Positions 4,570 through 64,000 are shown, counted from the stretch's first letter. The stretch: 64,000 nt of DNA from an uncultured Clostridia bacterium (GCA_947166135.1 CAMVDB010000002.1:14189-78188); one strand, 5' to 3'. Translations and numbers: made by a program. The notes: generated by a model from the sequence alone, not told the origin.

Positions 4570-6291
4570 TTATTTCAATTCACCCATGTAGTCGAAGTGG
4601 ATATCGCTGTTTTCTTCTATGTTACTGCCCAAATCAAGGCGGTAATAATCGTGGAACGGATTCTGCTCGCTCAACGGGAGCATCTCCATGTAGCTCTCGG
4701 TGTACCATGCGTTCAGGAAGTCTTTGTATCCGACGGGGATGAAGGTGTCTACATCGTCGAAACGATAGGGGATGACCTCCGAGAAGGTTTCGATGGGGAA
4801 GGTTCCGCGGTATTTATGGTCGGAGGAAGCGGGCATGACCCAACCGGTCTCCTTATGCTCGTATTTACGTACCGCCTTTTCGTATGATCGCGAATAGTCG
4901 TCCATCGAGCGCAGGCGAAGGATCGGCAGCAGCAGCTTGCTCAGCAGGTATGCCTTGCCCTTGCGGGCGGTATCCTTCCATCGCACGTTCATCAGCATGC
5001 GCTTGCGCATCAGATGCTTCCAGAAGCGGTATGCTGCCTTCGGATCGGCGGGCACATTATCGACAACGAAGATATCGACAGAGATACCCTTGTGCATTTC
5101 GTAGCCGTCGGAGTATTTTGAGGCGAAGTACGTGTCCTTCGCCGTGATCCGATCGAAAAAGTAGTGGTATCCGTTATGGTTGGTGTGGCTTTCGTAGCTG
5201 AATCGATTGTTTAATTCTTTTGGAGCAATTTGACGGAACTTTTCAAATTCCGATCTCAGCATGGCGACGTCAACGTCGTCATCCCACGGGATGAAGCCCC
5301 CGTGCCTGACGGCGCCCAACATCGTTCCGTAGCTGATGAAGTACTTGATATCATTCGCGCGGCATATTCGGTCAATCTCCCTGAGCATATCCTTTTCGAT
5401 CTCGCGCAGGGTATTGAGCTTGCCGCTGTAGCCGTCGTGGATACGGTCGGTCTGGATGCTGAACCGCTCCAGATGGTGGAGCAGGCTGTAACGCAGCGCA
5501 TCGGAGAAGGAACAAGCGTTCTCGTAACCGAGGGATTTCAGCTTGCCGTTGCTGATCGCGGCATATATCGGCTGAGTCGGCTCACCGCTGATCTGTAATT
5601 GTATCCCGTGACGCGCGAGCATGGTGTAGACCTCGCTTCTGAGCTCGTATTCACTGAGGTAGAAGGATGAGGCGTTGTAGGCGTTGCCGGGATGTCCGAG
5701 CTTACTGACGGTATAGACCGCGTCGATCGCGTCGCTGATATACAGCGCCGAGGTGTAGCGGTTCGCCATGCTCTGGGTTAGGCTGACAGTGCGGTCATTC
5801 TGTGCTTCCTTCGCGATATCCGCTAGATCAAAGCAGTCGAAATCGGCGCTGAATATTCTATCAAAGAATAATAAACAGGCGTCGCTATATGTGCCGAGTA
5901 ACTCTCTGAGACCGCCGAGACGATCATTCATCACGGTCAACAGCTCCATCTCGGCATATTTCTGAATGGTATCACCGGCTGGAATATTCGATAAAAGAAT
6001 AATAACAACCAGCCTCGCATGGCTTTTCTCGCACAAAGCGATCGCACTTTTGATATCATCCTCGTCAATGCGATCCTCCTCGGCAATATACCATAAACGG
6101 CTAAAGCCGCCGTTGATCGCAGCGGCGGCAGGGTAGAGGGGAGCTTCACTCCCGAGATATTTTGTTGTAGCCTTGAGATATTCAGCGCAGTGATGGGTGC
6201 CGACGATGGCGACGCCGTCCTGCTGCAGCCCCTTGCTCTTGATGTAGCGGGCGCTCATGTATATCTCGTTCTTGAAAACGGTTTCAATCAT
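4570..6291 (-). CDS. licD: LicD-family phosphotransferase fused to a degenerate N-terminal NAD-dependent epimerase/dehydratase-like domain
   Basis: C-terminal half has YFISYGTMLGAVRHGGFIPWDDDVDVAMLR and ISVDIFVVD (LicD). N-terminal half resembles an extended-SDR C-terminus (LYISDAIDAVY..GNAYNAS..KLKSLGY). Confidence 0.8.
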   Translation of the reverse strand: MIETVFKNEIYMSARYIKSKGLQQDGVAIVGTHHCAEYLKATTKYLGSEAPLYPAAAAINGGFSRLWYIAEEDRIDEDDIKSAIALCEKSHARLVVIILLSNIPAGDTIQKYAEMELLTVMNDRLGGLRELLGTYSDACLLFFDRIFSADFDCFDLADIAKEAQNDRTVSLTQSMANRYTSALYISDAIDAVYTVSKLGHPGNAYNASSFYLSEYELRSEVYTMLARHGIQLQISGEPTQPIYAAISNGKLKSLGYENACSFSDALRYSLLHHLERFSIQTDRIHDGYSGKLNTLREIEKDMLREIDRICRANDIKYFISYGTMLGAVRHGGFIPWDDDVDVAMLRSEFEKFRQIAPKELNNRFSYESHTNHNGYHYFFDRITAKDTYFASKYSDGYEMHKGISVDIFVVDNVPADPKAAYRFWKHLMRKRMLMNVRWKDTARKGKAYLLSKLLLPILRLRSMDDYSRSYEKAVRKYEHKETGWVMPASSDHKYRGTFPIETFSEVIPYRFDDVDTFIPVGYKDFLNAWYTESYMEMLPLSEQNPFHDYYRLDLGSNIEENSDIHFDYMGELK

Positions 6292-6303
6292 AGGATAAAA
6301 CGA

Positions 6304-7116
6304 TTATTTCTTTTCTGCTGATTTTTTCTCTTCCGCGGCTTTCTTCTCGGCGTCCTTCTTTTTCTTCTCGGCCGCCTTTTTAGCCTTTTCCTCTTCCTTG
6401 ACCTTCTTATACATGTTGAAAGCCTCGTGTACCTCGCCGTCGAACATCAGTTGCCCCTTCCTCAGATACAGGGCGCGGTCGCAGATCTCGATGACGGATT
6501 CGGGGTTATGGCTGACGTAGAGGACGGTGGTGCCGCTCGCAATGATATCGTTGATCTTATCCTTACACTTGCGCTTGAAGCTTGCGTCACCCACGGATAA
6601 CGCCTCGTCGACGACGAGGATATCCGGGTCGATATTGACGTTGATCGCAAAGCCCAAACGCATTTTCATACCGCTCGAATAGGTTCGGACGGGTTGGTCG
6701 ATATAGTCGCCGAGCTGAGCAAAATCAATGATACGCTCCTCAATCTCGCGGATATATGCGTCCTTGAGTCCGAGAATGTAGCCCTTGAGGTAGATGTTCT
6801 CTCTACCGGTCATCTCGGTGGAGAAGCCCGCGGTCAGCTCGAGCAGCGCCGCGACCTTACCGCCGACGTATACCTCGCCCTCACTGGGGAAGGCAACGCC
6901 GGTGATCATCTTGAGGATGGTGGATTTACCCGCGCCGTTATCGCCGATGATACCGATACTCTCGCCGCGGTGGACATCGAAGGTGACGTTTTTGAGCGCC
7001 TTGTTGATCTTTGCGCCCTTGGGCTTGAAGAACAGCGCGCGGAAGCGCTCGCGGTCGTTTTTATACAGGGTGTATTCCTTACTTACGTTCTTGAAAGAGA
7101 TAATTGCTTCTGACAT
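6304..7116 (-). CDS. tagH: Teichoic acid/polysaccharide ABC exporter ATP-binding protein
   Basis: GDNGAGKST, YSSGMKMRLGF and ILVVDEALSVGD motifs. Lys/Glu/Ala-rich C-terminal tail. Confidence 0.85.
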   Translation of the reverse strand: MSEAIISFKNVSKEYTLYKNDRERFRALFFKPKGAKINKALKNVTFDVHRGESIGIIGDNGAGKSTILKMITGVAFPSEGEVYVGGKVAALLELTAGFSTEMTGRENIYLKGYILGLKDAYIREIEERIIDFAQLGDYIDQPVRTYSSGMKMRLGFAINVNIDPDILVVDEALSVGDASFKRKCKDKINDIIASGTTVLYVSHNPESVIEICDRALYLRKGQLMFDGEVHEAFNMYKKVKEEEKAKKAAEKKKKDAEKKAAEEKKSAEKK

Positions 7117-7128
7117 GATATTACCTCC

Positions 7129-8022
7129 TTACAGTACGTCGGGCAGTCTCTTGCGCAGACGGTTGTAGTTGAAGATGCCCAGGAGAATAACGACAAGGAA
7201 CTCAGCGAGGAAGATGAACAGCTCGGTCTTATACTCCCAGAACCAGCGGTGATACAAGAAGCAGTTGCGGTAGCCGTTCGCGAAGAAGTTGATCGGGTTG
7301 AACATCATTAACTTTCTGATCCAGTCTGCGGGAGGATTCTTGCCGGTCAGCAGGTAGGAGTCGTAGATGATACCGGACAGCCAGAAGATACCCGACATGA
7401 CGGATACGATCATGTTCTCAAAGTCGCGCGAGAAAGCGGACATCGGCGCTGTCGACCATGACAGTACGAGAAAGAAGATGAACATCAGCGGCATGTAGAA
7501 GAATATCTGCAGGTTATAGACGCTCGGCATGATGCCCGCCGTGACCTCCTCGGCGCCCGGCAGCTTGATGGTGCCGCCGACGAAGCAGAGGTAGATGTAC
7601 ATCAGTACGGTCAGAAAGATATGGACGTAGAGTCTTGCGACCGAGGTGTAGGTCATAATGGTCGATACCGGGAAGCTGACCTTGTTGACGAACTGGCGGT
7701 TCTCGCGGATGGACTTCGCGCCCTGTACGATGCTCTCGTTGATGAAGAACCACGGGATGAAGCCGACCAGCATGAACAGGAATCGGCTGTACTCGAAGGT
7801 ACCGCCCGCATGTCCCAGCTCCGGGAAGATGACCTTGACGTTACCGGCGCTCTTGAGACCTACCTCGAAGGCGAACCAGTAGACGAACAGGGTAAACAGC
7901 GGCTTGACGACGCTCCACAGAGGACCGATGACCGCGCCCTTGTACTTTTTGATCAGCTCGTTCTTCGCCAGGAGCATGATTTGCTTACCAAACCCCCGGT
8001 GTTCTTGAAATATCTGAAACAT
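7129..8022 (-). CDS. tagG: Teichoic acid/polysaccharide ABC exporter permease
   Basis: LAKNELIKKYKGAVIGPLWSVVKP, GFIPWFFINESI and FNPINFFANGYR motifs. AGGAGA RBS precedes the ATG at 8022. Confidence 0.82.
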   Translation of the reverse strand: MFQIFQEHRGFGKQIMLLAKNELIKKYKGAVIGPLWSVVKPLFTLFVYWFAFEVGLKSAGNVKVIFPELGHAGGTFEYSRFLFMLVGFIPWFFINESIVQGAKSIRENRQFVNKVSFPVSTIMTYTSVARLYVHIFLTVLMYIYLCFVGGTIKLPGAEEVTAGIMPSVYNLQIFFYMPLMFIFFLVLSWSTAPMSAFSRDFENMIVSVMSGIFWLSGIIYDSYLLTGKNPPADWIRKLMMFNPINFFANGYRNCFLYHRWFWEYKTELFIFLAEFLVVILLGIFNYNRLRKRLPDVL

Positions 8023-8193
8023 AAAACTCTCCTTACAGGTGCCGATGGGAAAATCTGCCTGAAATACGGCACCACACAGATACAAATATTATAACTTATC
8101 TGCGTAAAAAGTCAATATCATATGATTCTATATAATAGTAGAATTATCGACGTTATTTTAGTGATTATTTCGAGAGAATTTCAGCACTTTATA

Positions 8194-8222
8194 TTGACAA
8201 AGTACGACGTGAAATATATAAT
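8194..8222 (+). promoter_or_regulatory. SigA-type promoter of potABCD
   Basis: TTGACA-17 bp-TATAAT consensus. Confidence 0.75.
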
Positions 8223-8314
8223 TTGAAAATGACGCTTTGCGATAGTATTCATGCTGTAAAGCGCAAAAGCGGTTGTTCGGATATGATCCGTTCAAAACTA
8301 AGGAGGTTAGATAG

Positions 8315-9718
8315 TTGAAGCAAAATGCAGTCGTATCCTTGAGGGATATCAATTTCAAGTATTCGAATGAGGTGATATTGAATAATATCAGCCTCGACAT
8401 ATTCGACAAGGAGTTCATCACGCTGCTCGGTCCGTCCGGCTGCGGAAAGACCACGACCCTGCGTATCATCGCGGGTTTTGAGACCCCGCAGAGCGGCGAG
8501 GTGTATTTTGAGGGGAAACAGATCAATGACCTGCCGCCCCACAAACGCAACGTGAACACGGTGTTCCAGAAGTACGCCCTGTTCCCGCATCTGAATGTGT
8601 TTGATAACGTTGCCTTCGGCTTAAAGCTGAAGAAGTTGTCGAAATCCGAAATCGAGCGGAAGGTAAAGCAGATGCTTGCTATCGTTGACCTCAAGGGCTA
8701 TGAGAAGCGTCCCGTACGCGAACTCTCCGGCGGCCAGCAGCAGCGAGTCGCTATCGCCCGCGCTCTGGTGTGCGACCCTAAGGTCGTCTTGCTCGACGAG
8801 CCGCTCGGCGCGCTCGACTTGAAGCTGAGAAAGGACATGCAGATCGAATTAAAGCAGCTTCAACAAAAGACCCAAAAGACTTTTGTATATGTTACCCATG
8901 ATCAGGAAGAGGCGCTGACCATGTCCGATCGCGTATGCGTTATGAACAACGGCGTGATCGCTCAGGTCGGTACTCCCGAAGATATTTATAATGAGCCGGC
9001 AAACGCTTTTGTCGCCGACTTCATCGGCGAGGCAAATATCATCAACGGCACCATGCTCGAGGACTGTAAGGTGCGTCTGCTCGGCGTCGAGCTCGACTGT
9101 GTGGATAAGGGCTTCGAGAAGAACAAGCCCGTCGACGTCGTGATCCGCCCCGAGGATATCGAGGTCGTCGCCCCCGATCGGGCGAAGCTCTCCGGCGTCG
9201 TCGAGGACGTTATCTTCAAGGGCGTCCATTTCGAGATCAGCGTGCGCTGCAACAACTGCCAGTGGCTGATCCACTCTACTGTCGCTCAGAAGGTGGGAGA
9301 CAGGATCGGTATGCGCGTTGATCCCTTCAACATCCATATCATGGATAAGATGTTCTTAAACCCCACGAATGATATTTTTACTGAGGTTTATTATTCTGAT
9401 AAAGAAAATAATACTACTACCTTCCTGCTCGAGGGCAGTGAGGTTACCATCCCCGATGTCTACTACAAGGAGGGGACAAAGCTCAAGATCGTCCTCCCGC
9501 CCGACGCGCTTTATATCGCGGGCGACGGCGTAGGACAGCTCGATGAGGTCTATATTGAGTCGGTTATATGGAAGGGTGAGCATAATGAGATCATCCTCGA
9601 GTCCGACGAGCGCAAGTGGATCATGCAGAGTGATATCGATGAGCAGGTAGCGACCTACGTTCCGCTTTGCTTCGATTTCAGTAAGGCTGAGATCAGCGAG
9701 GTAGCAGCCGATGAGTAG
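8315..9718 (+). CDS. potA: Spermidine/putrescine ABC transporter ATP-binding protein with extended C-terminus
   Basis: [19 protein letters not shown] and [14 protein letters not shown] motifs, plus a TOBE region. TTG start after AAGGAGG. Confidence 0.9.
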
Positions 9719-53889: not shown

Positions 53890-56007
53890 TTATTTCTCTT
53901 CCTTTTTCGCAGCCTTCTTGGCTGCGGGCTTCTTGGCAGCGGGCTTCTTGGCAGCAGACTTCTTTGCGGGAGCCTTCTTCACAGGTTTCTCATCCTTCTT
54001 AACGTCCGCATCCTTCGCAGCTTTCTTTGCGGCGCGGGTAGCGGCAGCCTTTTTTGCGGCTTCCTTACGCTTCGCAGCTTTCTCTTCCGCCGCGATCTCC
54101 TTCGGGCTCTTCTCCTTGCTGACGCACTTGAGGTACAGAGCGCTCATCGGAGGCAGGTTGAGGTAGATGGACTGCTCGAAGCCGTGCATCTCTTCATCGA
54201 CGGTGTGGATCTCGGTGCCGTTTGTCTTACCGGTGCCGCCCCACTGCTCGTCGTCGGAGTTGAATACCTCGGCGTAGGTGCCCCACTCGGGAACGCCGAT
54301 ACCGTAGTTCTCACGGTACATGGGCTGGAAGTTGCACACGACGATGACATTGTTGCCTTCCTTATCGATACGGCGGAACGCGATAACGCTCTGCTGATAA
54401 TCGTCGTGATGGATCCAGTTGAAGCCTTCCCATGTGAAGTCGACCTGATACATGCAGGTGTTCTCTTTATAGAAATTGTTGAGCGCGCGGAAGAAGTCGT
54501 TGAGCTTCTTGTGCTTCTCGAAGCCGAGCAGACCCCACTGCAGCTCTTCGGTGCTGTTCCACTCGTCGAACTGACCGATCTCAGCGCCCATGAAGGTGAG
54601 CTTCTTGCCGGGATGAGCCATCATGTAGGACATGAATACGCGAACGCCCGCGAACTTCATATCATAATCGCCGGGCATCTTATTAATCAGCGAGCCCTTG
54701 CCGTAGACGACCTCGTCGTGAGAGATCGGGAGCAGGAAGTTCTCGGAGAACGCATACAGGAACGAGAAGGTGATGCTGTTGTGATGATAGGGTCTCCACA
54801 GCGGATCGAGGGACATGTAGGACAGCATATCGTTCATCCAGCCCATATTCCACTTGTAGTCGAAGCCCAGACCGCCGTCGGATACGGGACGGGAGACCAT
54901 CGGCCAGGAGGTGGACTCCTCGGCGATCATCATAACGGTCGGATGATGCAGGTGAACGGCAGTGTTCAGTCTCTGGATGAACTCGACAGCCTCGAGGTGC
55001 TCATGACCGCCGTACTTGTTGGCGACCCACTCGCCGTCGCGGCGGTTGTAGTCGAGGTACAGCATGGAGGCTACCGCGTCAACGCGGATACCGTCGACAT
55101 GGTACTTGTCCAGCCAGAACATCGCGGAGGATACCAGGAACGAGATGACCTCGTAGCGGGCATAGTCAAAGACGTAGGTGCCCCACTCTTTGTGCTCGCC
55201 CTTGCGGCTGTCCTCGTACTCATAGCAGTGGATACCGTCGAAACGTCCCAGACCGTGAGCGTCCTTGGGAAAGTGAGCGGGTACCCAGTCGAGGATAACG
55301 CCGATGCCCTCCTGATGGCACTTGTCGATGAAATGCATGAACATGTCGGGAGAACCGTAGCGGGAGGTGGGAGCGTAGTAACCGGTAACCTGATAACCCC
55401 AGGAGCCGTCGAAGGGATACTCGGTCATGGGCATGAACTCGATGTGGGTGTAACCCATCTCCTTGACGTAGGGGATCAGCTCGTCGGCAAGCTTGTCATA
55501 CGAGAAGGTGTTGCCGTCGGCATACTTTCTCCAGGAGCCCGCGTGAACCTCATAGATGTTCAGCGGATTCTCGAAGTGATTGTGTTCCATCTTATACTTG
55601 TACCACGCTTCATCATTCCACTGATACTTGTTGTAGTTGTAGATGATGGAGGCGTTATCGGGACGGGTCTGAGTATGGAACGCGAACGGATCGGACTTTA
55701 AGATTTTCTCGAACCACGGGGTCTCTACGCAATACTTGTAGATCGCGGTCTCGCCGAGGTTGGCGATCCAGCCTTCCCATACGCCGCCTTCGGAAATCTT
55801 GTGCATATGGTTGGCGTTCTGATCCCAGCCGTTAAAGTCGCCGACGACCGAGACGGAGAGAGCGTTCGGAGCCCATACACGGAACATGGTGCCCTGTACG
55901 CCGTCCATCCAGTAATCATGCGCGCCTAAGAAATCATAAGCGCGTACAGCGTCGCCGCCGTGGAATAGATCGAGAGGGAATCTTTCGTCGTTTAAAACAT
56001 AATTCAT
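53890..56007 (-). CDS. glgB: 1,4-alpha-glucan branching enzyme with Lys/Ala/Pro-rich C-terminal tail
   Basis: IYEVHAGSW, SWGYQVTGY, DGIRVDAVASM, IAEESTSW and PISHDEVV motifs. AAGGAG RBS before the ATG at 56007. Confidence 0.95.
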   Translation of the reverse strand: MNYVLNDERFPLDLFHGGDAVRAYDFLGAHDYWMDGVQGTMFRVWAPNALSVSVVGDFNGWDQNANHMHKISEGGVWEGWIANLGETAIYKYCVETPWFEKILKSDPFAFHTQTRPDNASIIYNYNKYQWNDEAWYKYKMEHNHFENPLNIYEVHAGSWRKYADGNTFSYDKLADELIPYVKEMGYTHIEFMPMTEYPFDGSWGYQVTGYYAPTSRYGSPDMFMHFIDKCHQEGIGVILDWVPAHFPKDAHGLGRFDGIHCYEYEDSRKGEHKEWGTYVFDYARYEVISFLVSSAMFWLDKYHVDGIRVDAVASMLYLDYNRRDGEWVANKYGGHEHLEAVEFIQRLNTAVHLHHPTVMMIAEESTSWPMVSRPVSDGGLGFDYKWNMGWMNDMLSYMSLDPLWRPYHHNSITFSFLYAFSENFLLPISHDEVVYGKGSLINKMPGDYDMKFAGVRVFMSYMMAHPGKKLTFMGAEIGQFDEWNSTEELQWGLLGFEKHKKLNDFFRALNNFYKENTCMYQVDFTWEGFNWIHHDDYQQSVIAFRRIDKEGNNVIVVCNFQPMYRENYGIGVPEWGTYAEVFNSDDEQWGGTGKTNGTEIHTVDEEMHGFEQSIYLNLPPMSALYLKCVSKEKSPKEIAAEEKAAKRKEAAKKAAATRAAKKAAKDADVKKDEKPVKKAPAKKSAAKKPAAKKPAAKKAAKKEEK

Positions 56008-56331
56008 AATCTGACTCTCCTTTATAAAAAGAATTAGTACATAAATATACAACTCTATAATAACAGACATTTTTGACAATTTCAAGTAAAAACAGAAATT
56101 AAATTCCAAACTTTTAGTGCAGTTTTTATAAAATCTGACAATACACTTGTCATTATAGACAATGAAAAACTATATTTTCATAACTTATGTACAAAGCGGA
56201 GAGCCGTAAAGAGTGATTTGAGCGCAGCAATCGGTCGATCGTGCTTGGATACAGTGATGGAGCGGCTGTGTGCTTTAATTCGCTTATTGTATAGCGTCAA
56301 GTTTGATATTATTCCTTTTACGAAATAATTC

Positions 56332-56360
56332 TTGACATTTCGGTGTCCGTATATTATTAT
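56332..56360 (+). promoter_or_regulatory. SigA-type promoter about 300 bp upstream of rny
   Basis: TTGACA-17-TATTAT. Confidence 0.65.
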
Positions 56361-56405
56361 AAATTATGGTTTATTATATTGGTATTATTATATTCAATAG
56401 TAATA

Positions 56406-56611
56406 GCCGTTTCACAGCTGCGCGTGACAGGCGTCGCTGTGCTTATCTGACTCTCTTAGAGAGCCGTTATATATAGATATTTTACCCATATTACCATTCC
56501 AACCGCATGATGCTTTGAGATATATTTTTATATAGAAAGGTGACATACGCGGACAACCGATTTTCCTGTCAACGACAGTGGTGATACAAAACTGAATATC
56601 TGAGTAACGGC
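56406..56611 (+). ncRNA. Candidate structured RNA (long rod) in the rny 5' leader
   Basis: Long-range complementarity read by eye: GCCGTT/AACGGC, TGACAGG/CCTGTCA and an AU-rich terminal stem. Not computed. Confidence 0.35.
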
Positions 56612-56658
56612 ACCGTGAGTTGAGTTTGATGAATCATCAAATCAAGGAGGTGTCACAT

Positions 56659-58212
56659 GTGAATGCTGTTTTAGCAGTTATCCTGATCGTCGTCGCGGTG
56701 ATCGTCGGCGCGGCAGTCGGTATCTTTATCGGCAACGCTTATCGTAAGAAGGTAGCCGAGGCTGAGATCGGCAGCGCCGAGGAAGAGGCGAAGCGTATCG
56801 TCTCCGACGCGATGAAAACAGCTGAAGCAAAGAAGAAGGAAGCGATCCTTGAGGGTAAGGATGAGGTTCATCGCCTTCGTAACGAGGGTGAAAAGGAACT
56901 CGCCGACCGCCGCAAGGAGGTACAGCGCCAGGAGCGCCGTATCCAGCAGAAGGAAGAGACCCTGGACCGTAAGATCGACAACATCGAGAAGAAGGAAGAC
57001 AGAGTCAACAAGAAGATCAAAGACGCCGAGGTAAGACTCGCCGAGGCGGAAACTATCAAGAAGAGTCAGTTTGAGATGCTCGAGAGGATCTCGGGCTTCA
57101 CCGTAGATCAGGCTAAGACCTATCTGCTCGATCAGCTCGAGGGCGAGCTCGGCAGAGAGAAGAGCCTCAAGATCATGGAGTATGAGCAGCAGCTCAAGGA
57201 CGAGGCCGACAAGCGCGCCCGCAATATCATCTCCCTCGCGATCCAGCGCTGTGCCGCGGATCAGGTGGCTGAGGCGACCGTATCGGTCGTACCGCTGCCG
57301 AACGATGAGATGAAGGGTCGTATCATCGGACGTGAGGGTCGTAACATCCGCGCTATCGAGACGATGACCGGCTGTGACCTGATCATCGACGATACTCCCG
57401 AGGCGATCACGCTGTCCTGTTTTGAGCCCGTTCGCCGTGAGATCGCGCGCGTCGCGCTCGAGAAGCTGATCTCCGACGGCCGTATCCATCCCGCCAGAGT
57501 TGAGGAGATGGTCGAGAAGGCTCGTCGCGAGGTTGAGCAGAGCATCAAGCAGGCGGGTGAACGCGCCGTATTGGACGCAGGCGTCCACGGACTGCATCCC
57601 GAGCTGGTCAAGATCCTCGGCAGACTCAAGTACCGTACCAGCTACGGTCAGAATGTTTTGAAGCACTCGCTCGAGGTCAGCTATATCTCCGGTATGATTG
57701 CGTCCGAGCTGGGACTTGATCCCAAGGTCGCGAAGCGTGCGGGTCTTCTGCATGACATCGGTAAAGCGCTCGACCATGAGATCGAAGGCAGTCACGTCGA
57801 GATCGGCGTAGACGTTGCCCGTAAGTACAAGGAGAGCGACGCGGTGGTTCATGCGATCCATGCCCACCACGGCGACGTAGAGGCTAAGACGGTCGTCGCC
57901 TGCATCGTACAGGCTGCCGACGCGATCTCCGCCGCCCGTCCCGGTGCACGCCGTGAGAACCTTGAGAACTACATCAAGCGTCTGCAGAAGCTTGAAGAAG
58001 TCGCATCGTCCTTCAAGGGCGTTGAGAACTCCTTCGCGATCCAGGCGGGTCGTGAGATCCGTATCATGGTCAAGCCTGAGCAGGTCAAGGATGACGAGAT
58101 GGCGTCCCTCGCCCGCGATATCTGTAAGAAGATCGAGGAAGAACTCGAGTATCCGGGTCAGATCAAGGTCAACATCATCCGCGAATCCCGCGCGGTCGAC
58201 TTTGCAAAATAA
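56659..58212 (+). CDS. rny: Ribonuclease Y
   Basis: N-terminal TM helix, coiled coil, KH ([13 protein letters not shown]), HD (LLHDIGK). GTG start after AAGGAGGTG. Confidence 0.96.
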
Positions 58213-58399: not shown

Positions 58400-59257
58400 C
58401 TAAAAATCCCACTCGGGTACATACTTTTGATCCGCGCTGGTTAGCTCCTGTGCGAATCCGTCAAAGCCCAGCTCATAATACCGCTCCAGTACACGGTGAT
58501 ATTCCCGCTTTGTGATACGGCGGTTGATATCGGGATACTCGTCTGCTTTCCCCGCGGGCATATACTGCGCCATCAGGCTTACGGGGATTCGGTCGTCCCA
58601 ATGCTCCTTGATGATCTGTAAGACGCCGAAGCTGTTTTTGACGTGAGAGGGGAGGACGAGGTGGCGGATGATGACGCCGCGCTTGATCAAGCCGTCCTCA
58701 TACACGCTGTTGCCGCACTGACGCATCATCTCGTCGATCGCCGCAGTTGCCCTCTCCACATAATCAGGACAGCGCGAGAGCCTTTCTGCCAGTGCGTTAT
58801 CACTGTACTTGAAATCGGGCAGATAGACGTCGATCAGTCCTTCGAGCCTTTTGAGTGTCTCGACCTTCTCATAGCCCGAGCTGTTGTAGATGAACGGAAG
58901 TTCGGGACGGTAAAATCGAAAGCTCTCGATGATCGCGTCGACATAGTGCGTCGGCGTGACCAGCTCGATGTTATGTACACCCATATCCACGAGCCTTCTG
59001 TACTGCTCGCTCAGCTCGTAGGGAGTGATGACCCTCCCTTTTGAGAGCGCTGAGATCTCATAGTTCTGACAGTACACGCACCGCAGGCTGCACCCGGAGA
59101 AGAAGATCGTCCCGGCGCCGTTTGTTCCGCTGATCGGCGGTTCCTCGTCATAGTGAGGCGCTACGCGGGCGACTGTGGGCAGCTTTCCTACGCCGCAGAA
59201 GCTGATACGCTGTTCCCGATCGACGTTACATTCCCTCGGACAGAGCACGCATTTCAT
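58400..59257 (-). CDS. pflX: PflX-like radical SAM protein
   Basis: MKCVLCPRECNVDR, EEPPISG..GAGTIFFSGCSLRCVYCQN, DVYLPDFKY and IRHLVLP motifs. Confidence 0.85.
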   Translation of the reverse strand: MKCVLCPRECNVDREQRISFCGVGKLPTVARVAPHYDEEPPISGTNGAGTIFFSGCSLRCVYCQNYEISALSKGRVITPYELSEQYRRLVDMGVHNIELVTPTHYVDAIIESFRFYRPELPFIYNSSGYEKVETLKRLEGLIDVYLPDFKYSDNALAERLSRCPDYVERATAAIDEMMRQCGNSVYEDGLIKRGVIIRHLVLPSHVKNSFGVLQIIKEHWDDRIPVSLMAQYMPAGKADEYPDINRRITKREYHRVLERYYELGFDGFAQELTSADQKYVPEWDF

Positions 59258-59415
59258 CCAATCACATCCTTTATCCCTATTATACCATAACTCCGAAGGA
59301 GATATGGTATAATCAGCCATCGCCCGTTGTCGCGAAGCGACAAACCGGGCGGGCATATAAATTTGTATAATAACCGGATTTATACGGTTATTATACCATA
59401 TATAGGATAAAAATG

Positions 59416-59646
59416 CTATACCTCAAAGTCGTAGAGAAAATCCTCGATCGCCGTGTTCAGATGGTCGGGCGAGAGTTGTTCGGTATTATATTTTTTCGCT
59501 AAGGCTTCTATCAGAGCCCTTTCTGTAGAAATATCCCCGACAGTGCGTATGATCCTGCCATTGACAAAGACCTGTAAACCGTATGCCGTGTATAATCCGT
59601 ACGCACTGTCGAATTTGCGTTCCGCAATCGGTTTATATCGTATCAT
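59416..59646 (-). CDS. Small hypothetical protein (DUF6514-like)
   Basis: YTAYGLQV..VGDISTERA..LAKKYNTEQLSPDHLNTAIEDFL pattern; GAGG RBS. Confidence 0.6.
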   Translation of the reverse strand: MIRYKPIAERKFDSAYGLYTAYGLQVFVNGRIIRTVGDISTERALIEALAKKYNTEQLSPDHLNTAIEDFLYDFEV

Positions 59647-59810
59647 GTTCTTCCTCTGTGAAGTGATTTCACTCAAACAGTGAAATTTTATCACCGCTTG
59701 TCATTTTTTGCAAGTGTTTCAACAAAAGTGTAAATAACATTACATCAATCGACATATTTGTGCTGTAATCGTTACAAAATGTGACGGAATAATTAAGTAA
59801 AAAAACAATA

Positions 59811-59839
59811 TTGAAAACAATCGCGCATTGTGTTATGAT
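59811..59839 (+). promoter_or_regulatory. SigA-type promoter of the ABC-2 operon
   Basis: TTGAAA-17-TATGAT with extended TG; palindrome TGTAATCGTTACA at 59764-59776 upstream. Confidence 0.65.
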
Positions 59840-59846
59840 ACAAAAA

Positions 59847-59891
59847 ATGGATAATTATAGATCAATAACAAGCGGCTTGTGGATCCTTTGA
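59847..59891 (+). other. Candidate leaderless upstream ORF MDNYRSITSGLWIL
   Basis: ATG starts 8 nt after the -10 box; stops at TGA 59889-59891 inside a leader hairpin. Confidence 0.35.
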
Positions 59892-59933
59892 TAAGGCTGT
59901 TTCGCAACAATCCACGACCGCCGATGAGGGTAT

Positions 59934-60956
59934 ATGAATATGGAAGCAATGATTTATGCAGAAAATCTGCGCAAGGAATTCAAGAAGATCATCAAGGAAC
60001 CGGGTCTCAAAGGCGCCGCGAAAGCGCTGTTCAAGCCGAATAAAGAGATCGTCACTGCAGTGGACGATATCTCGTTCGAGGTACCTGCGGGGGAGATTCT
60101 CGGATTTATCGGGCCGAACGGTGCGGGTAAGAGCACGGTCATCAAGATGCTCACGGGTATTTTGACCCCGACCTCCGGTTTCTGCCGCATCAACGGCAAG
60201 ATTCCGCAGGAGGATCGCAAGAACTATGTCCGTGAGATCGGCGTCGTGTTCGGTCAGCGTACCCAGCTTTGGTGGGATTTGGCGCTGCGTGAGACCTATT
60301 CTGTCTTAAAGGAGATCTATCAGGTTCCGGAGGAACAGTTCAAGAAGCGCATGACGTTCCTTAACGAGGTGCTGGAGCTCGACAGCTTCATTACCAGTCC
60401 CGTCCGAACCCTGTCACTCGGTCAGCGTATGCGTGCCGATATCGCTGCGGCGCTGCTGCATTCTCCGAAGGTGCTGTTCCTCGATGAGCCGACGATCGGC
60501 TTGGATGTTGTCGTCAAGGAGAACATCCGCTCCGCGATCCGTAAGATCAATGAGGAGGAGGGCACGACCGTCATCCTCACTACCCATGATCTCGCCGATA
60601 TCGAGCTCTTATGTGAGCGTATCGTCATGATCGATAAGGGCAGAAAGGTTTTTGATGGTGGTTTGTCGGAGCTTCGCCATAACTTCGGTGATGTACGGAC
60701 GCTCCGCTTCGAGCTGGTCAACGGTCCCGATTTCAAGCTTCTCGACTATCGTCGCCGCTTCAAGCTGACCGATGATGACGTCAGCGCTGAGCGCGACGGC
60801 AGCTCGGTCACGGTTCGTTTTGATACCGCGAAGGTCAGCGTAGAGGAAATGATCTCCTACACGCTGTCGACCGTTCATGTCAAGGATCTGAACATCAAGG
60901 ACGTAGAGATTGAGGAGATCATCAAGAAGCTCTACCGCCGCGAGGTGAGCCTATGA
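59934..60956 (+). CDS. ABC-2 exporter ATP-binding protein
   Basis: GPNGAGKST, VVFGQRTQLWWDL, LSLGQRMRA and LFLDEPTIGLD motifs. Confidence 0.9.
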   Translation: MNMEAMIYAENLRKEFKKIIKEPGLKGAAKALFKPNKEIVTAVDDISFEVPAGEILGFIGPNGAGKSTVIKMLTGILTPTSGFCRINGKIPQEDRKNYVREIGVVFGQRTQLWWDLALRETYSVLKEIYQVPEEQFKKRMTFLNEVLELDSFITSPVRTLSLGQRMRADIAAALLHSPKVLFLDEPTIGLDVVVKENIRSAIRKINEEEGTTVILTTHDLADIELLCERIVMIDKGRKVFDGGLSELRHNFGDVRTLRFELVNGPDFKLLDYRRRFKLTDDDVSAERDGSSVTVRFDTAKVSVEEMISYTLSTVHVKDLNIKDVEIEEIIKKLYRREVSL

Positions 60957-61780
60957 GCAGAGTGAAGCGGTTTTTCCGCACCTATACGCCCTTCACCCGA
61001 GCGGGTATGCAGGAGATGGTCGCCTACCGTGCGAATTTCCTGTGCTTTCTGATCGGTGAGATCATGGCGTCGTTCATCATGTACTTCGTTTGGAAGGCGG
61101 TGTTCGACAGCTCCGGGAGCGAGACCTTCATGGGCTTTACGATGGAGGATATGGTCGTCTACCTGTTTATCACCTTCTTAGCGGGCTATCTGACCTATTC
61201 CGACGGCGCGTTCACGGTAGGGGAGGAGATCATCGACGGCTCGATCGCCATGCGCATGATCCGCCCGTGTTCATTCGAGATGTGCTTTCTGTTTCAGGAG
61301 CTCGGTAATCGCATTATTTCCGTTTCGATGATCTTTGTGCCGATCGTAGCGGGCGTTGAGATCTACCGCTATGTTCAGGCGGGAGAGGTTCGTTTTCAAC
61401 CGATCTATTTCCTTCTGTTTCTGCTTAGCCTTGTGTTCGCCTATATGATCTCTTTCTATTTTAATGTATGCTACGGCTTTATGGCGTTCTTCTTCAAGAA
61501 CCTCTGGGGCACTACGCTGATCAAGGAGACGGTCGTCAATTTCCTTTCGGGAGCGATCGTTCCGTTGGCGTTTCTGCCGGCGGGCCTTGCGAACGTGCTG
61601 AACTTCTTGCCGTTTGCATCACTCTCCTATACCCCCGTGATGATATACATGGGGATGTACAGCTATTCTGAGATCGCGTGGCGTATGGGCTTACAGATAT
61701 TCTGGCTGCTTGTCATGTACGGACTGTCGAAGCTGATCTGGCGCAGTGCTGTCCGTCACCTGAGTGTACAGGGAGGTTGA
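60953..61780 (+). CDS. ABC-2 exporter permease (DUF990/ABC2_membrane_6 type)
   Basis: MVAYRANF, IGEEIIDGSIAMRMIRP-like segment, FLSGAIVPLAFLP and LPFASLSYTPV motifs. Confidence 0.85.
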   Translation: MSRVKRFFRTYTPFTRAGMQEMVAYRANFLCFLIGEIMASFIMYFVWKAVFDSSGSETFMGFTMEDMVVYLFITFLAGYLTYSDGAFTVGEEIIDGSIAMRMIRPCSFEMCFLFQELGNRIISVSMIFVPIVAGVEIYRYVQAGEVRFQPIYFLLFLLSLVFAYMISFYFNVCYGFMAFFFKNLWGTTLIKETVVNFLSGAIVPLAFLPAGLANVLNFLPFASLSYTPVMIYMGMYSYSEIAWRMGLQIFWLLVMYGLSKLIWRSAVRHLSVQGG

Positions 61781-61783
61781 GCT

Positions 61784-62575
61784 ATGATGCGATATATACG
61801 ACTCCACCGCATTTTCATCGCCCAGTATCTCAAGCGGCTGATGGAGTACAAGGTCGATTTTATGCTCGGCGCGATCGGCTTGCTGATCGCTCAGGGTATG
61901 CAGCTGATCTTCCTCGGCATCATCTTCAGCGCGATCCCCGCCCTCAAGGGATGGCAGTTTGAAGAAGTACTGTTCATCTATGGCTTTTCTCTGGTGCCCA
62001 AGACCATCGACCACCTCTTTACCGATAACCTCTGGATGGTCGGTTACCGTATCATCCGCAAGGGCGAGTTCGACAAGTACCTGACCCGCCCGATCAATAC
62101 ACTGTATCATGTGATCGCCGAGAACTTCTGCGTCGACGCATTCGGAGAGCTGCTGACCTGTATTCTCCTGCTTGCGTATTCGATCCCGAAGCTCAGTATT
62201 CCGTTCCACTGGTATACGATCCCGCTGTTTCTTATTGTATCGATATTTGCGACGCTGATCTACACATCACTGAAGATCATGACCTCTGCGATCTCCTTCT
62301 GGACGAAGGCGAGCGGTCATATCACCCACATGCTGTATATGACTAACGACTTCGGCAAATACCCTGTCACGATCTATAATAAGGCGGTACAGGCGCTGAT
62401 CACCTACGTGATCCCCTTCGCCTTTACCGCGTACTTTCCCGCAACCTATTTTCTGACGGGCAAGAATCCTCTTTTCTGCCTCGGAGGCACTGTGATCGCC
62501 GGTACGGTGCTGTTCCTTCTGGCGATCTTCGTCTGGAACAGAGGACTCAGAGCCTACGAGTCCGCCGGATCGTAG
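61784..62575 (+). CDS. ABC-2 exporter permease (DUF990/ABC2_membrane_6 type), second subunit
   Basis: LMEYKVDF, IRKGEFDKYLTRPIN, FGKYPVTIY and RGLRAYESAGS motifs. Confidence 0.85.
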   Translation: MMRYIRLHRIFIAQYLKRLMEYKVDFMLGAIGLLIAQGMQLIFLGIIFSAIPALKGWQFEEVLFIYGFSLVPKTIDHLFTDNLWMVGYRIIRKGEFDKYLTRPINTLYHVIAENFCVDAFGELLTCILLLAYSIPKLSIPFHWYTIPLFLIVSIFATLIYTSLKIMTSAISFWTKASGHITHMLYMTNDFGKYPVTIYNKAVQALITYVIPFAFTAYFPATYFLTGKNPLFCLGGTVIAGTVLFLLAIFVWNRGLRAYESAGS

Positions 62576-62663: not shown

Positions 62664-63755
62664 ATGAATCCTTTTATCTATTATTCTTCTGAAGAAAAAA
62701 CAGAATATGTGACTTCCCGATGTTCGCTGAATCGCGCCGTCATGCAGAAGCTCCCCTTGTACGGGATCGAGGATGAGCTCGAGGGCTTGGCTTATAAGGA
62801 TATTTTTTCCACGCCGCTTCTGGTTGCCGAGATCCGCCGTGTGTCACGTCGATTCGGTATTGACCTGAACGAGCTTCCCGACCGACAGCTCCCGTTCCTT
62901 GTTGATGAAGGGCTTGTTTCCGGTGATATGCGTCGTCGTCAGATGGCGGAGCATGTGGTGAAGCGTTTCGGTACGCGCCTCGGACTCCTTTTGCTTGCGC
63001 TCAGGATGGGGGAGAAGGAGAACCGCCTCGCTCGCCCCGAATGGGACGACGCTTGTTGGGATTACTGGCGCGATCTTGATACTGTCATCCTTACCGGAGG
63101 TCTTGCGAGCTCTATGCTCGGCAGACGCTTTAAGGAGTATATCCACCGGGTCTTTGACCGAGCGGGTGAGAGATGTTATCATATCCGCCTGTTCGATAAC
63201 GGCAGTTACCTCGGTATCATGGGACTTGCTCAGCGTTTGCTCAGTGATAACACCGCCGCCCTGGTGTTCGATATGGGGCATACGGGCTGGAAGCGCGCTT
63301 TGGTTCGTATGGGTACGGGTGAGATCGCGGGTTTTACGCCGATGGAGAGCCTACCGTCGCGTTATATGGAGAACCGATTTAATAACCCCGCTGAACAGCT
63401 TCGGTTGGCGATCGAGCTCCATCGATATATCGTCAATACCGTAGCGTCTTCCTACCGTGAACTGACGCAGAAGCTCGAGCTCTGTGATACCATCCTGATC
63501 AGCATCGCCAATTACACCCGCGGCGGCGTTCTCGACAGCGAGCACGGCGGATACGCAAAGCTCAGTCTTCTCAATACCGATTACGGACAACTGCTGGAGG
63601 AGGAACTCTCGGATGAGCTGCACCGTGAACTCAGAGTACGGCTGGTGCATGACGCTACCGCCACGGCACTGTACTTCGATGAAGTGCGGAACGCTGCCTG
63701 TATCACGCTTGGTACCGGCTTCGGCGTCGGATTTCCCGAGATCCGCATCGGTTAG
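62664..63755 (+). CDS. ROK/ASKHA-like protein with circularly permuted motif order
   Basis: VILTGGLAS and DNGSYLGIMG come before LVFDMGHT, VRLVHDATATAL and ITLGTGFGVG. Start codon uncertain (no clear RBS). Confidence 0.7.
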   Translation: MNPFIYYSSEEKTEYVTSRCSLNRAVMQKLPLYGIEDELEGLAYKDIFSTPLLVAEIRRVSRRFGIDLNELPDRQLPFLVDEGLVSGDMRRRQMAEHVVKRFGTRLGLLLLALRMGEKENRLARPEWDDACWDYWRDLDTVILTGGLASSMLGRRFKEYIHRVFDRAGERCYHIRLFDNGSYLGIMGLAQRLLSDNTAALVFDMGHTGWKRALVRMGTGEIAGFTPMESLPSRYMENRFNNPAEQLRLAIELHRYIVNTVASSYRELTQKLELCDTILISIANYTRGGVLDSEHGGYAKLSLLNTDYGQLLEEELSDELHRELRVRLVHDATATALYFDEVRNAACITLGTGFGVGFPEIRIG

Positions 63756-64000
63756 TACCCTCTATACATATTTATATATCATTCTCAGGAGCTGTCGTTT
63801 CATTATCGAACGGCTCCTGATTATTTTTGTGCAAAAAAATGACAGCTTTGTCATTATCACCAAATAATCGGCCGAAAGATTGTGCAATTCATGAAGCGCT
63901 TTTTCGTTTATTTATTCCTCCCTTTATGGTATAATGTCTTTAATTGGAATAGTATGTGCTATTACTGTTCCATAGAACGTTTTTCAAAAGGAGAGGATTA

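Follow-up and report, generated by a model that had tools for sequence, protein, structure and literature searches.

Few enzyme architectures have been studied as thoroughly as the ASKHA fold of actin, Hsp70, hexokinase and the ROK kinases, and to our knowledge the connectivity of its chain, from lobe I into lobe II, has been treated as constant. Natural circular permutation is known from another kinase fold, that of the ADP-dependent sugar kinases and the ribokinases, which differ by a reordering of strands. As in the case described below, the sugar-kinase active site is kept there despite the changed connectivity, but those enzymes belong to the ribokinase-like superfamily and not to ASKHA. 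Here we analyze a gene located in a window of 64,000 nucleotides (the whole stretch of DNA considered) from an uncultured Clostridia bacterium (GCA_947166135.1, CAMVDB010000002.1:14189-78188). The gene occupies positions 62664 to 63755 of the plus strand, begins with ATG and encodes a ROK/hexokinase-like protein of 363 amino acids that is presumably cytoplasmic because it has no signal peptide. The first-pass annotation, made from the DNA alone, had read this protein as a ROK kinase whose motifs occur in circularly permuted order. The nine strings on which that reading was based are all present in the 363-residue ORF where it had placed them: SRCSLNR (18-24), FGTRLGLLL (102-110), VILTGGLAS (141-149), DNGSYLGIMG (178-187), QRLLSDNTA (190-198), LVFDMGHT (200-207), ILISIA (277-282), VRLVHDATATAL (325-336) and ITLGTGFGVG (347-356).

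A Pfam search of the protein gave a match to ROK (PF00480) below threshold (E 0.16, 11.9 bits against a cut-off of 22.9), in which residues 254 to 357 fell on positions 37 to 138 of the 294-position model, that is, on its N-terminal part. The C-terminal half alone scored 14.0 bits and distant members of the family reached at most 16 bits, compared with the same gathering threshold. No match was found to the protein in NCBIfam, nor with phmmer among the PDB sequences. These permuted proteins escape annotation because linear profile models see only one half of them. A profile built from 88 diverse family members, down to about 25% identity, produced matches among the PDB sequences that were confined to ROK kinases and hexokinases. 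In the ROK glucokinase 2qm1 (E 0.001) the matching segments appeared in swapped order, with query residues 134-187 aligned to 265-320, 189-212 to 4-27 and 322-355 to 114-153, and the same order was observed in BglK (4htl); the PDB matches of this profile are individually borderline (E 0.001 to 0.04). With a narrower profile, residues 199 to 361 were placed on the small lobe of yeast hexokinase, residues 81 to 243 (3b8a, E 0.31).

A direct comparison was made with hhalign against a ROK profile of 20 sequences, namely the ROK glucokinase of the same genome and 19 ROK genes, 27 to 40% identical, from other families of the phylum. In the native order the query gave two matches: residues 199-357 to ROK 4-145 (probability 94.3%, E 1e-7) and residues 47-190 to ROK 185-315 (probability 68.8%, E 4.5e-5), these E-values referring to a single comparison and not to a whole database. 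Taken separately, lobe I was matched with a probability of 94-95% and lobe II with 65-69%. The query alignment was then rotated through 25 cut points, each compared with the ROK profile, and the sole cut that gave one end-to-end alignment was at residue 195 (ROK 4-315, 275 columns, probability 96.9%, single-comparison E 1.5e-10), with a score of 81 versus about 61. As controls, the N-terminal half scored 38.7 against 13.9 +/- 2.0 in 20 column shuffles (maximum 17.7) and 17.4 when reversed, and the C-terminal half 59.0 against 13.7 +/- 1.6 shuffled and 13.6 reversed. The swapped motif order thus lies beyond chance, and its motifs fall on invariant columns of the 88-sequence alignment. Likewise, the halves of the protein correspond to the exchanged halves of ROK, as the first-pass annotation had predicted: both hhalign and the PDB profile searches assign residues 196-363 to the N-terminal lobe plus the phosphate-2 hairpin and residues 47-190 to the C-terminal lobe.

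All parts of the gene lie on the plus strand, and the five ASKHA motifs (phosphate-1, connect-1, phosphate-2, adenosine and connect-2) all aligned to ROK with hhalign. The chain starts with a new N-terminal segment (residues 1-46, positions 62664-62801), recognized by the AF2 strands at residues 5-8 and 13-16 and by family conservation. According to hhalign it occupies the place of the ROK ExGH strand and zinc-cysteine loop. The replacement of the EXGH and CxCGxxGC region by a new N-terminus, proposed at the outset, agrees with this, since both motifs are absent from the sequence and the segment has no confident hhalign counterpart. A conserved NPF comes first, followed by S21-L-N23-R, in which N23 is invariant and S21 is present in 93% of the 88 aligned sequences. 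NPF is kept across phyla, consistent with chain ends that have a structural role in lobe II at the point of the cut, and the segment would form part of the substrate site. The bulk of lobe II (residues 47-192, positions 62802-63239) is the counterpart of the ROK C-terminal domain, as delimited by the hhalign and 2qm1 matches given above. It contains the helix FGTRLGLLL (102-110), a Trp-rich insert (W127, W132 and W135), the adenosine motif LTGGLAS, whose LTGGLA aligns with ROK IGGGIA and in which G145 and G146 are invariant, and the connect-2 helix (residues 178-192), where ROK GNDAGIIGAA corresponds to DNGSYLGIMGLA.

A short linker, SDNTA (residues 193-197, positions 63240-63254), bridges the canonical ROK C- and N-termini; it is bounded by the AF2 helix 183-192 and strand 198-204 and coincides with the hhalign cut-point peak at residue 195. 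The segment from phosphate-1 to connect-1 (lobe I, positions 63255-63671) follows, supported by profiles, hhalign, AF2 and conservation. In it, ROK IDLGGT appears as FDMGHT (D203, G205 and T207), D203, G205 and K210 being invariant; the ROK PG loop corresponds to ISIANY at residues 279-284 (A282, Y284), with Y297 further on; and ROK ENDANAAAL corresponds to VHDATATAL, where H329 takes the place of Asn and D330 is the counterpart of the catalytic base of ROK kinases and hexokinases. The retention of the phosphate-1 and connect-1 aspartates, one of the initial claims, holds for D203 and D330 in all 88 sequences. Finally, the phosphate-2 hairpin of lobe II (residues 344-357, CITLGTGFGVGF, positions 63693-63734; profile, hhalign, AF2 and conservation) lies at the extreme C-terminus, six residues before the chain end. 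Here ROK ITLGTGVGGG reads ITLGTGFGVG, with G350 and G354 invariant and T351 present in 95% of the sequences. Altogether, N23, G145, G146, D203, G205, K210, D330, G350 and G354 are invariant in the alignment, and S21, A95, G103, L113, R124, W127, W132, W135, G153, G187, A282, Y284, Y297, H329, A333, A335, T351 and G356 are conserved in at least 90% of its members.

The AF2 model of the window protein (pLDDT 92.5, pTM 0.88) begins with a beta-hairpin (5-8, 13-16), followed by helices between residues 50 and 137, a strand at 140-144, a helix at 150-167, a strand at 173-176 and the helix at 183-192; after the linker, lobe I is complete from strand 198-204 onwards, and the last strands are 344-348 and 354-356. 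This order of secondary structure is what the proposed cut after phosphate-2, with the old termini joined at residues 193-197, implies. The same order of elements was seen when a second protein, an Anaerolineae member with 28-30% identity to the first, was modelled with locus translations as the only alignment input (pLDDT 90.6, pTM 0.89). Foldseek searches with both models retrieved ASKHA proteins throughout, the leading matches with a probability of 1.00. The first ranks were taken in both cases by the tandem 900-residue hexokinases I and II (1dgk, 1cza and 5hfu; 354-404 columns, rmsd 29-35 A), single-copy ASKHA proteins having query TM-scores of about 0.2-0.3. Most likely, the tandem-hexokinase alignment spans the C-lobe of one half and the N-lobe of the next, as expected of a permutant. 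The best-fitting matches of the second model were ROK kinases superposed on one lobe, namely NanK (6jdh, 2aa4 and 6jdc) and 1woq (127-162 columns, 4.1-4.7 A, 16-21% identity). Hence the structural check suggested by the first-pass annotation gave the pattern of a permutation: single-copy ROK kinases fit one lobe only and tandem hexokinases rank first. The sheet of lobe II would be continuous in three dimensions, judging by the modelled order of secondary structure and the Foldseek behaviour. Profile searches, hhalign, AF2 and Foldseek together show that the protein is circularly permuted and belongs to the ROK/hexokinase branch of the ASKHA fold.

The likeness to ROK kinases (PF00480; the Enterococcus glucokinase 2qm1, the beta-glucoside kinase BglK 4htl, the N-acetylmannosamine kinases 2yhw/6jdh/2aa4 and the ROK glucokinase of the same genome) comprises the two-lobed ASKHA fold, the aligned DxGxT, catalytic Asp, LGTGxG, adenosine GG and connect-2 helix, and the best low-rmsd single-lobe superpositions. 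In contrast with them, the permuted protein is cut after the phosphate-2 hairpin, lacks ExGH and CxCGxxGC, has H-D for N-D, carries the N-terminal S-L-N-R segment and the Trp-rich insert, and scores below the Pfam threshold. Homology to ROK extends over both lobes, but the canonical connectivity from lobe I to lobe II is not found. Judged by its sequence, the protein is therefore not a ROK member by the criteria of that family, as it is below threshold, has neither ExGH nor the zinc motif and is not colinear; it is rather a known type of enzyme in a new topology, with well conserved catalytic machinery. The ROK-type inorganic polyphosphate/ATP-glucomannokinase 1woq lacks the cysteine zinc motif, as does the permuted family. 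It was the second-best PDB sequence match (E 0.0016, over connect-1 and phosphate-2) and was also retrieved by Foldseek (162 columns, 21% identity, 4.7 A), yet its chain order is canonical and only one lobe superposes. Among hexokinases, the 100-kDa mammalian tandem enzymes I and II were the top Foldseek matches, and in the lobe I profile alignment to yeast hexokinase the Arg of DLGGTNFR stands opposite K210. The full-length alignment to the tandem enzymes, however, has an rmsd of about 30-35 A, they are much larger, and the hexokinase Pfam models (PF00349/PF03727) gave no match to the permuted protein.

Since the ASKHA superfamily includes more than small-molecule kinases, we considered whether the protein might be an ATPase or phosphohydrolase, like EutJ, the DnaK nucleotide-binding domain, BcrA/BadF, Ppx/GppA or NTPDase, or a filament or scaffold protein like ParM, PilM or FtsA. 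Foldseek indeed returned EutJ, the DnaK domain, PilM, ParM, FtsA and Ppx/GppA with E-values near those of the hexokinases. These matches, however, are explained by the fold common to the superfamily, and their rmsd is poor or their coverage partial, whereas the sequence profiles recognize ROK kinases and hexokinases alone, hhalign spans ROK from end to end, the catalytic N-D/H-D position included, and the structural matches of low rmsd are ROK kinases. We regard an ATPase or scaffold role as unlikely.

We favour, as the somewhat more probable account, a permuted two-lobed ASKHA phosphotransferase of ROK/hexokinase descent that works by a kinase mechanism. The chain begins just after the phosphate-2 hairpin, forms what remains of lobe II with G145-G146 and the connect-2 helix, passes through the 5-residue linker and the whole of lobe I (D203 and D330), and closes with the hairpin (T348, G350 and T351), which folds into lobe II again. 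With the hairpin back in place, the active site in three dimensions would match that of an ordinary sugar kinase. ATP-Mg, or a different phosphoryl donor, would be held in the cleft by the adenosine motif and the two phosphate motifs, the lobes would shut on the acceptor, and D330 would deprotonate its hydroxyl for in-line phosphoryl transfer. The ExGH Glu and His, the zinc-cysteine loop and the Asn of N-D would be replaced by the N-terminal segment (N23), H329 and the Trp-rich insert. Because these ROK specificity elements are replaced, the acceptor is probably not glucose, the presumed substrate type of the canonical ROK glucokinase in the same genome. Selection is strongest on the nucleotide-binding and catalytic residues, and for this reason we think that the protein is rather likely an active phosphotransferase, as would the kinase of altered substrate site suggested in the first-pass annotation be. 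That its acceptor is of sugar type has a little less than an even chance, and an alpha-glucan-derived sugar in particular is a fairly unlikely choice. The aminoglycoside-type acceptors also raised at the outset receive no support from the gene context.

Two replacement roles were rejected. The permuted protein does not stand in for a missing glucokinase, since the genome has a canonical ROK glucokinase (IDLGGTN, ENDANAAALGE, ITLGTGVGGG, ELGH and CGCGRKGCWE); no Glk-type gene (PF02685) was found in that genome. Neither does it replace the pantothenate kinase CoaX (PF03309), since the genome's own CoaX scores 201 bits and, among 81 genomes sampled across the order, the permuted family was present in 1 and CoaX in 50.

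Concerning the genomic neighbourhood, the gene is followed by the start of an amylosome-type pullulanase/amylase gene (63882-64000, plus strand) that runs off the window; its 1445-residue product (locus L005, 8071-12408) carries CBM48, GH13, a pullulanase all-beta domain, MucBP, a type I dockerin and three CBM26 domains. At about 35 loci of Oscillospirales, with identities as low as 43-45%, the permuted gene is immediately followed on the same strand by an amylosome-type pullulanase/amylase of about 1400 residues (CBM48, GH13, MucBP, dockerin and three CBM26), which is its sole constant neighbour in that order, and no terminator-like site was found between the two genes. This arrangement could be expected if the protein were a non-catalytic ligand sensor, a permuted Mlc/NagC-like module without the DNA-binding domain that senses a starch-derived sugar and modulates a partner, for example pullulanase expression or export. 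The ROK family does include non-kinase regulators, Mlc (3bp8) was among the Foldseek matches, and some non-catalytic ROK sensors also keep the ATP and sugar motifs. Nevertheless, the permuted protein has no HTH or other output domain, its nucleotide-binding and catalytic positions are all invariant across phyla, which points to catalysis, and distant members have unrelated neighbours. Moreover, an orthologue-like amylase was present in 61 of 61 sampled genomes of the genus, including those without the permuted gene, so that no co-variation between the two exists, and in a complete genome without the permuted gene the locus is otherwise identical, transporter and amylase included, with a 191-bp gap in its place. 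A sensor role thus seems improbable, and we return to the phosphotransferase as the preferred reading; a link to alpha-glucan metabolism is a weak lead.

Upstream, the window contains an ABC-2 exporter-type operon (59934-62575, plus strand) with an ATPase (59934-60956) and two permeases (60953-61780 and 61784-62575). The operon is not a fixed neighbour: most Ruminococcus loci have it, but eight loci of the Ruminococcus clade do not. These eight loci, together with the complete genome just mentioned, exclude an obligatory unit of transporter and permuted gene, and the two are probably not of the same function. Across the genus the ATPase and its two ABC2_membrane_6 (PF06182) permeases behave as a present/absent cassette between a radical-SAM gene and the amylase locus, and three configurations were seen: the ABC genes with the permuted gene, the permuted gene alone, and the ABC genes alone. 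The radical-SAM protein (58400-59356, minus strand; about 290-318 residues) and a DUF6514 protein from the small ORF beside it (about 75-95 residues) are divergent conserved neighbours across the genus. A DUF4236 protein of 305 residues (L005, 12964-13881) follows the amylase, at a place where relatives have the spore-coat genes CotJA, CotJB and Mn-catalase (CotJC). The G+C content falls to 0.41-0.44 at 55500-57000, near where the RNase Y gene begins, and at 59000-60000, upstream of the ABC operon, from about 0.52-0.57 elsewhere in the window. A defence function was discarded, as PADLOC gave no match for the permuted protein and only generic ATPase matches for the ABC ATPase.

Outside the Oscillospirales the neighbours change and point to no consistent substrate. 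Loci of Izemoplasma and Acholeplasmataceae (L071-L073 and L083, at about 5000-9400) show a DUF2089 HTH protein, a SHOCT-like protein, a RumA-type methyltransferase, UPF0047, the permuted gene and a second, paralogous RumA-type methyltransferase, and in two of the loci of these groups a GH13 amylase lies 5-8 genes downstream. In Izemoplasma the UPF0047 stop codon overlaps the start of the permuted gene. Chloroflexi have LigA, RlaP, an alpha-glucan phosphorylase or unrelated genes. Several of these neighbours (LigA and RlaP in Anaerolineae, the two methyltransferases and UPF0047 with its overlap in Izemoplasma, RNase Y nearby in Ruminococcus) might suggest a kinase of nucleic-acid or RNA metabolism instead of a sugar kinase. 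Yet no neighbour theme is common to Izemoplasma, Acholeplasma and Chloroflexi, each lineage having its own set, a gene on the opposite strand separates RNase Y from the permuted gene, LigA is adjacent in only 2 of 7 Chloroflexi loci, and the closest relatives in sequence and structure are all sugar kinases, which leaves this option very improbable.

The permuted protein belongs to a large family. More than 311 homologues of about 363 residues, from Ruminococcus or from gut and rumen metagenomes, came up in a word-indexed search; the named ones were all "hypothetical" and none had a precomputed Pfam domain. The homologue collection called for by the first-pass annotation was extended by an exhaustive profile search of 1.84 billion representatives, which gave 614 clusters at 50% identity, 452 of them at E <= 1e-10. 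Among the best 150 of the 614 clusters, full-length members have about 330-390 residues and are colinear with the query, hence of the same order. The termini are uniform, with NPF at the N-terminal end and GxGFP at the C-terminal end. Ten distant members showed no Pfam family above threshold, and those with names were again all "hypothetical". One metagenome protein of 680 residues (P0150) consists of a single family copy and an unrelated N-terminal extension of 277 residues with no Pfam match, and P0233, P0266 and P0274 have unannotated extensions of 80-180 residues; no fused domain was recognized in these longer members. The named genomes that encode members are rumen Ruminococcus MAGs and those of other Oscillospirales, of Izemoplasma/Acholeplasmataceae, of Anaerolineae/Chloroflexi and of Gemmatimonadota. 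The spread of the family is patchy. Of the 61 species sampled from the genus, 21 carry an intact copy (among high-quality genomes, 11 of 34), and across the order it was seen in the single genome already counted among the 81. Duplication and fusion is the classical route to permutation, and a single example might resemble the product of misassembly, fusion or decay, put together from one ROK tail and the next ROK head, but the breadth of the family over several phyla, its uniform length and termini, the intact gene in so many species, two compact high-confidence AF2 models and the lack of any tandem or duplicated intermediate among its members refute that artefact, to which we give practically no credence.

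The impression, stated in the first-pass annotation, that no permuted ROK family had been described is borne out by Pfam, NCBIfam, the source names and the literature searched. A full-text literature search, whose coverage excludes most subscription journals, found no paper on a permuted ASKHA or ROK protein. A kinase classification of 2005 uses permutation as a general criterion for fold groups, though not for ASKHA members (PMC1079889). The family may be the first recognized natural lineage of circularly permuted ASKHA sugar kinases, active and with a rebuilt acceptor pocket (the S-L-N-R segment, H329 and the Trp-rich insert) that confers an activity outside those of known ROK, hexokinase and Glk enzymes, a proposal that we consider plausible but somewhat short of an even chance. 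If true, the neighbouring debranching amylase could supply the acceptor, as one of its products, in rumen starch-degrading Ruminococcus.

A large natural family cut inside lobe II, with its old termini fused, means that the ASKHA fold tolerates permutation in evolution, and it offers a natural test case for studies of folding and hinge dynamics. Hundreds of "hypothetical proteins" from gut, rumen and environmental bacteria can be reassigned as probable kinases. A new sugar-phosphorylating activity may emerge from them, possibly relevant to the use of starch by rumen Ruminococcus.
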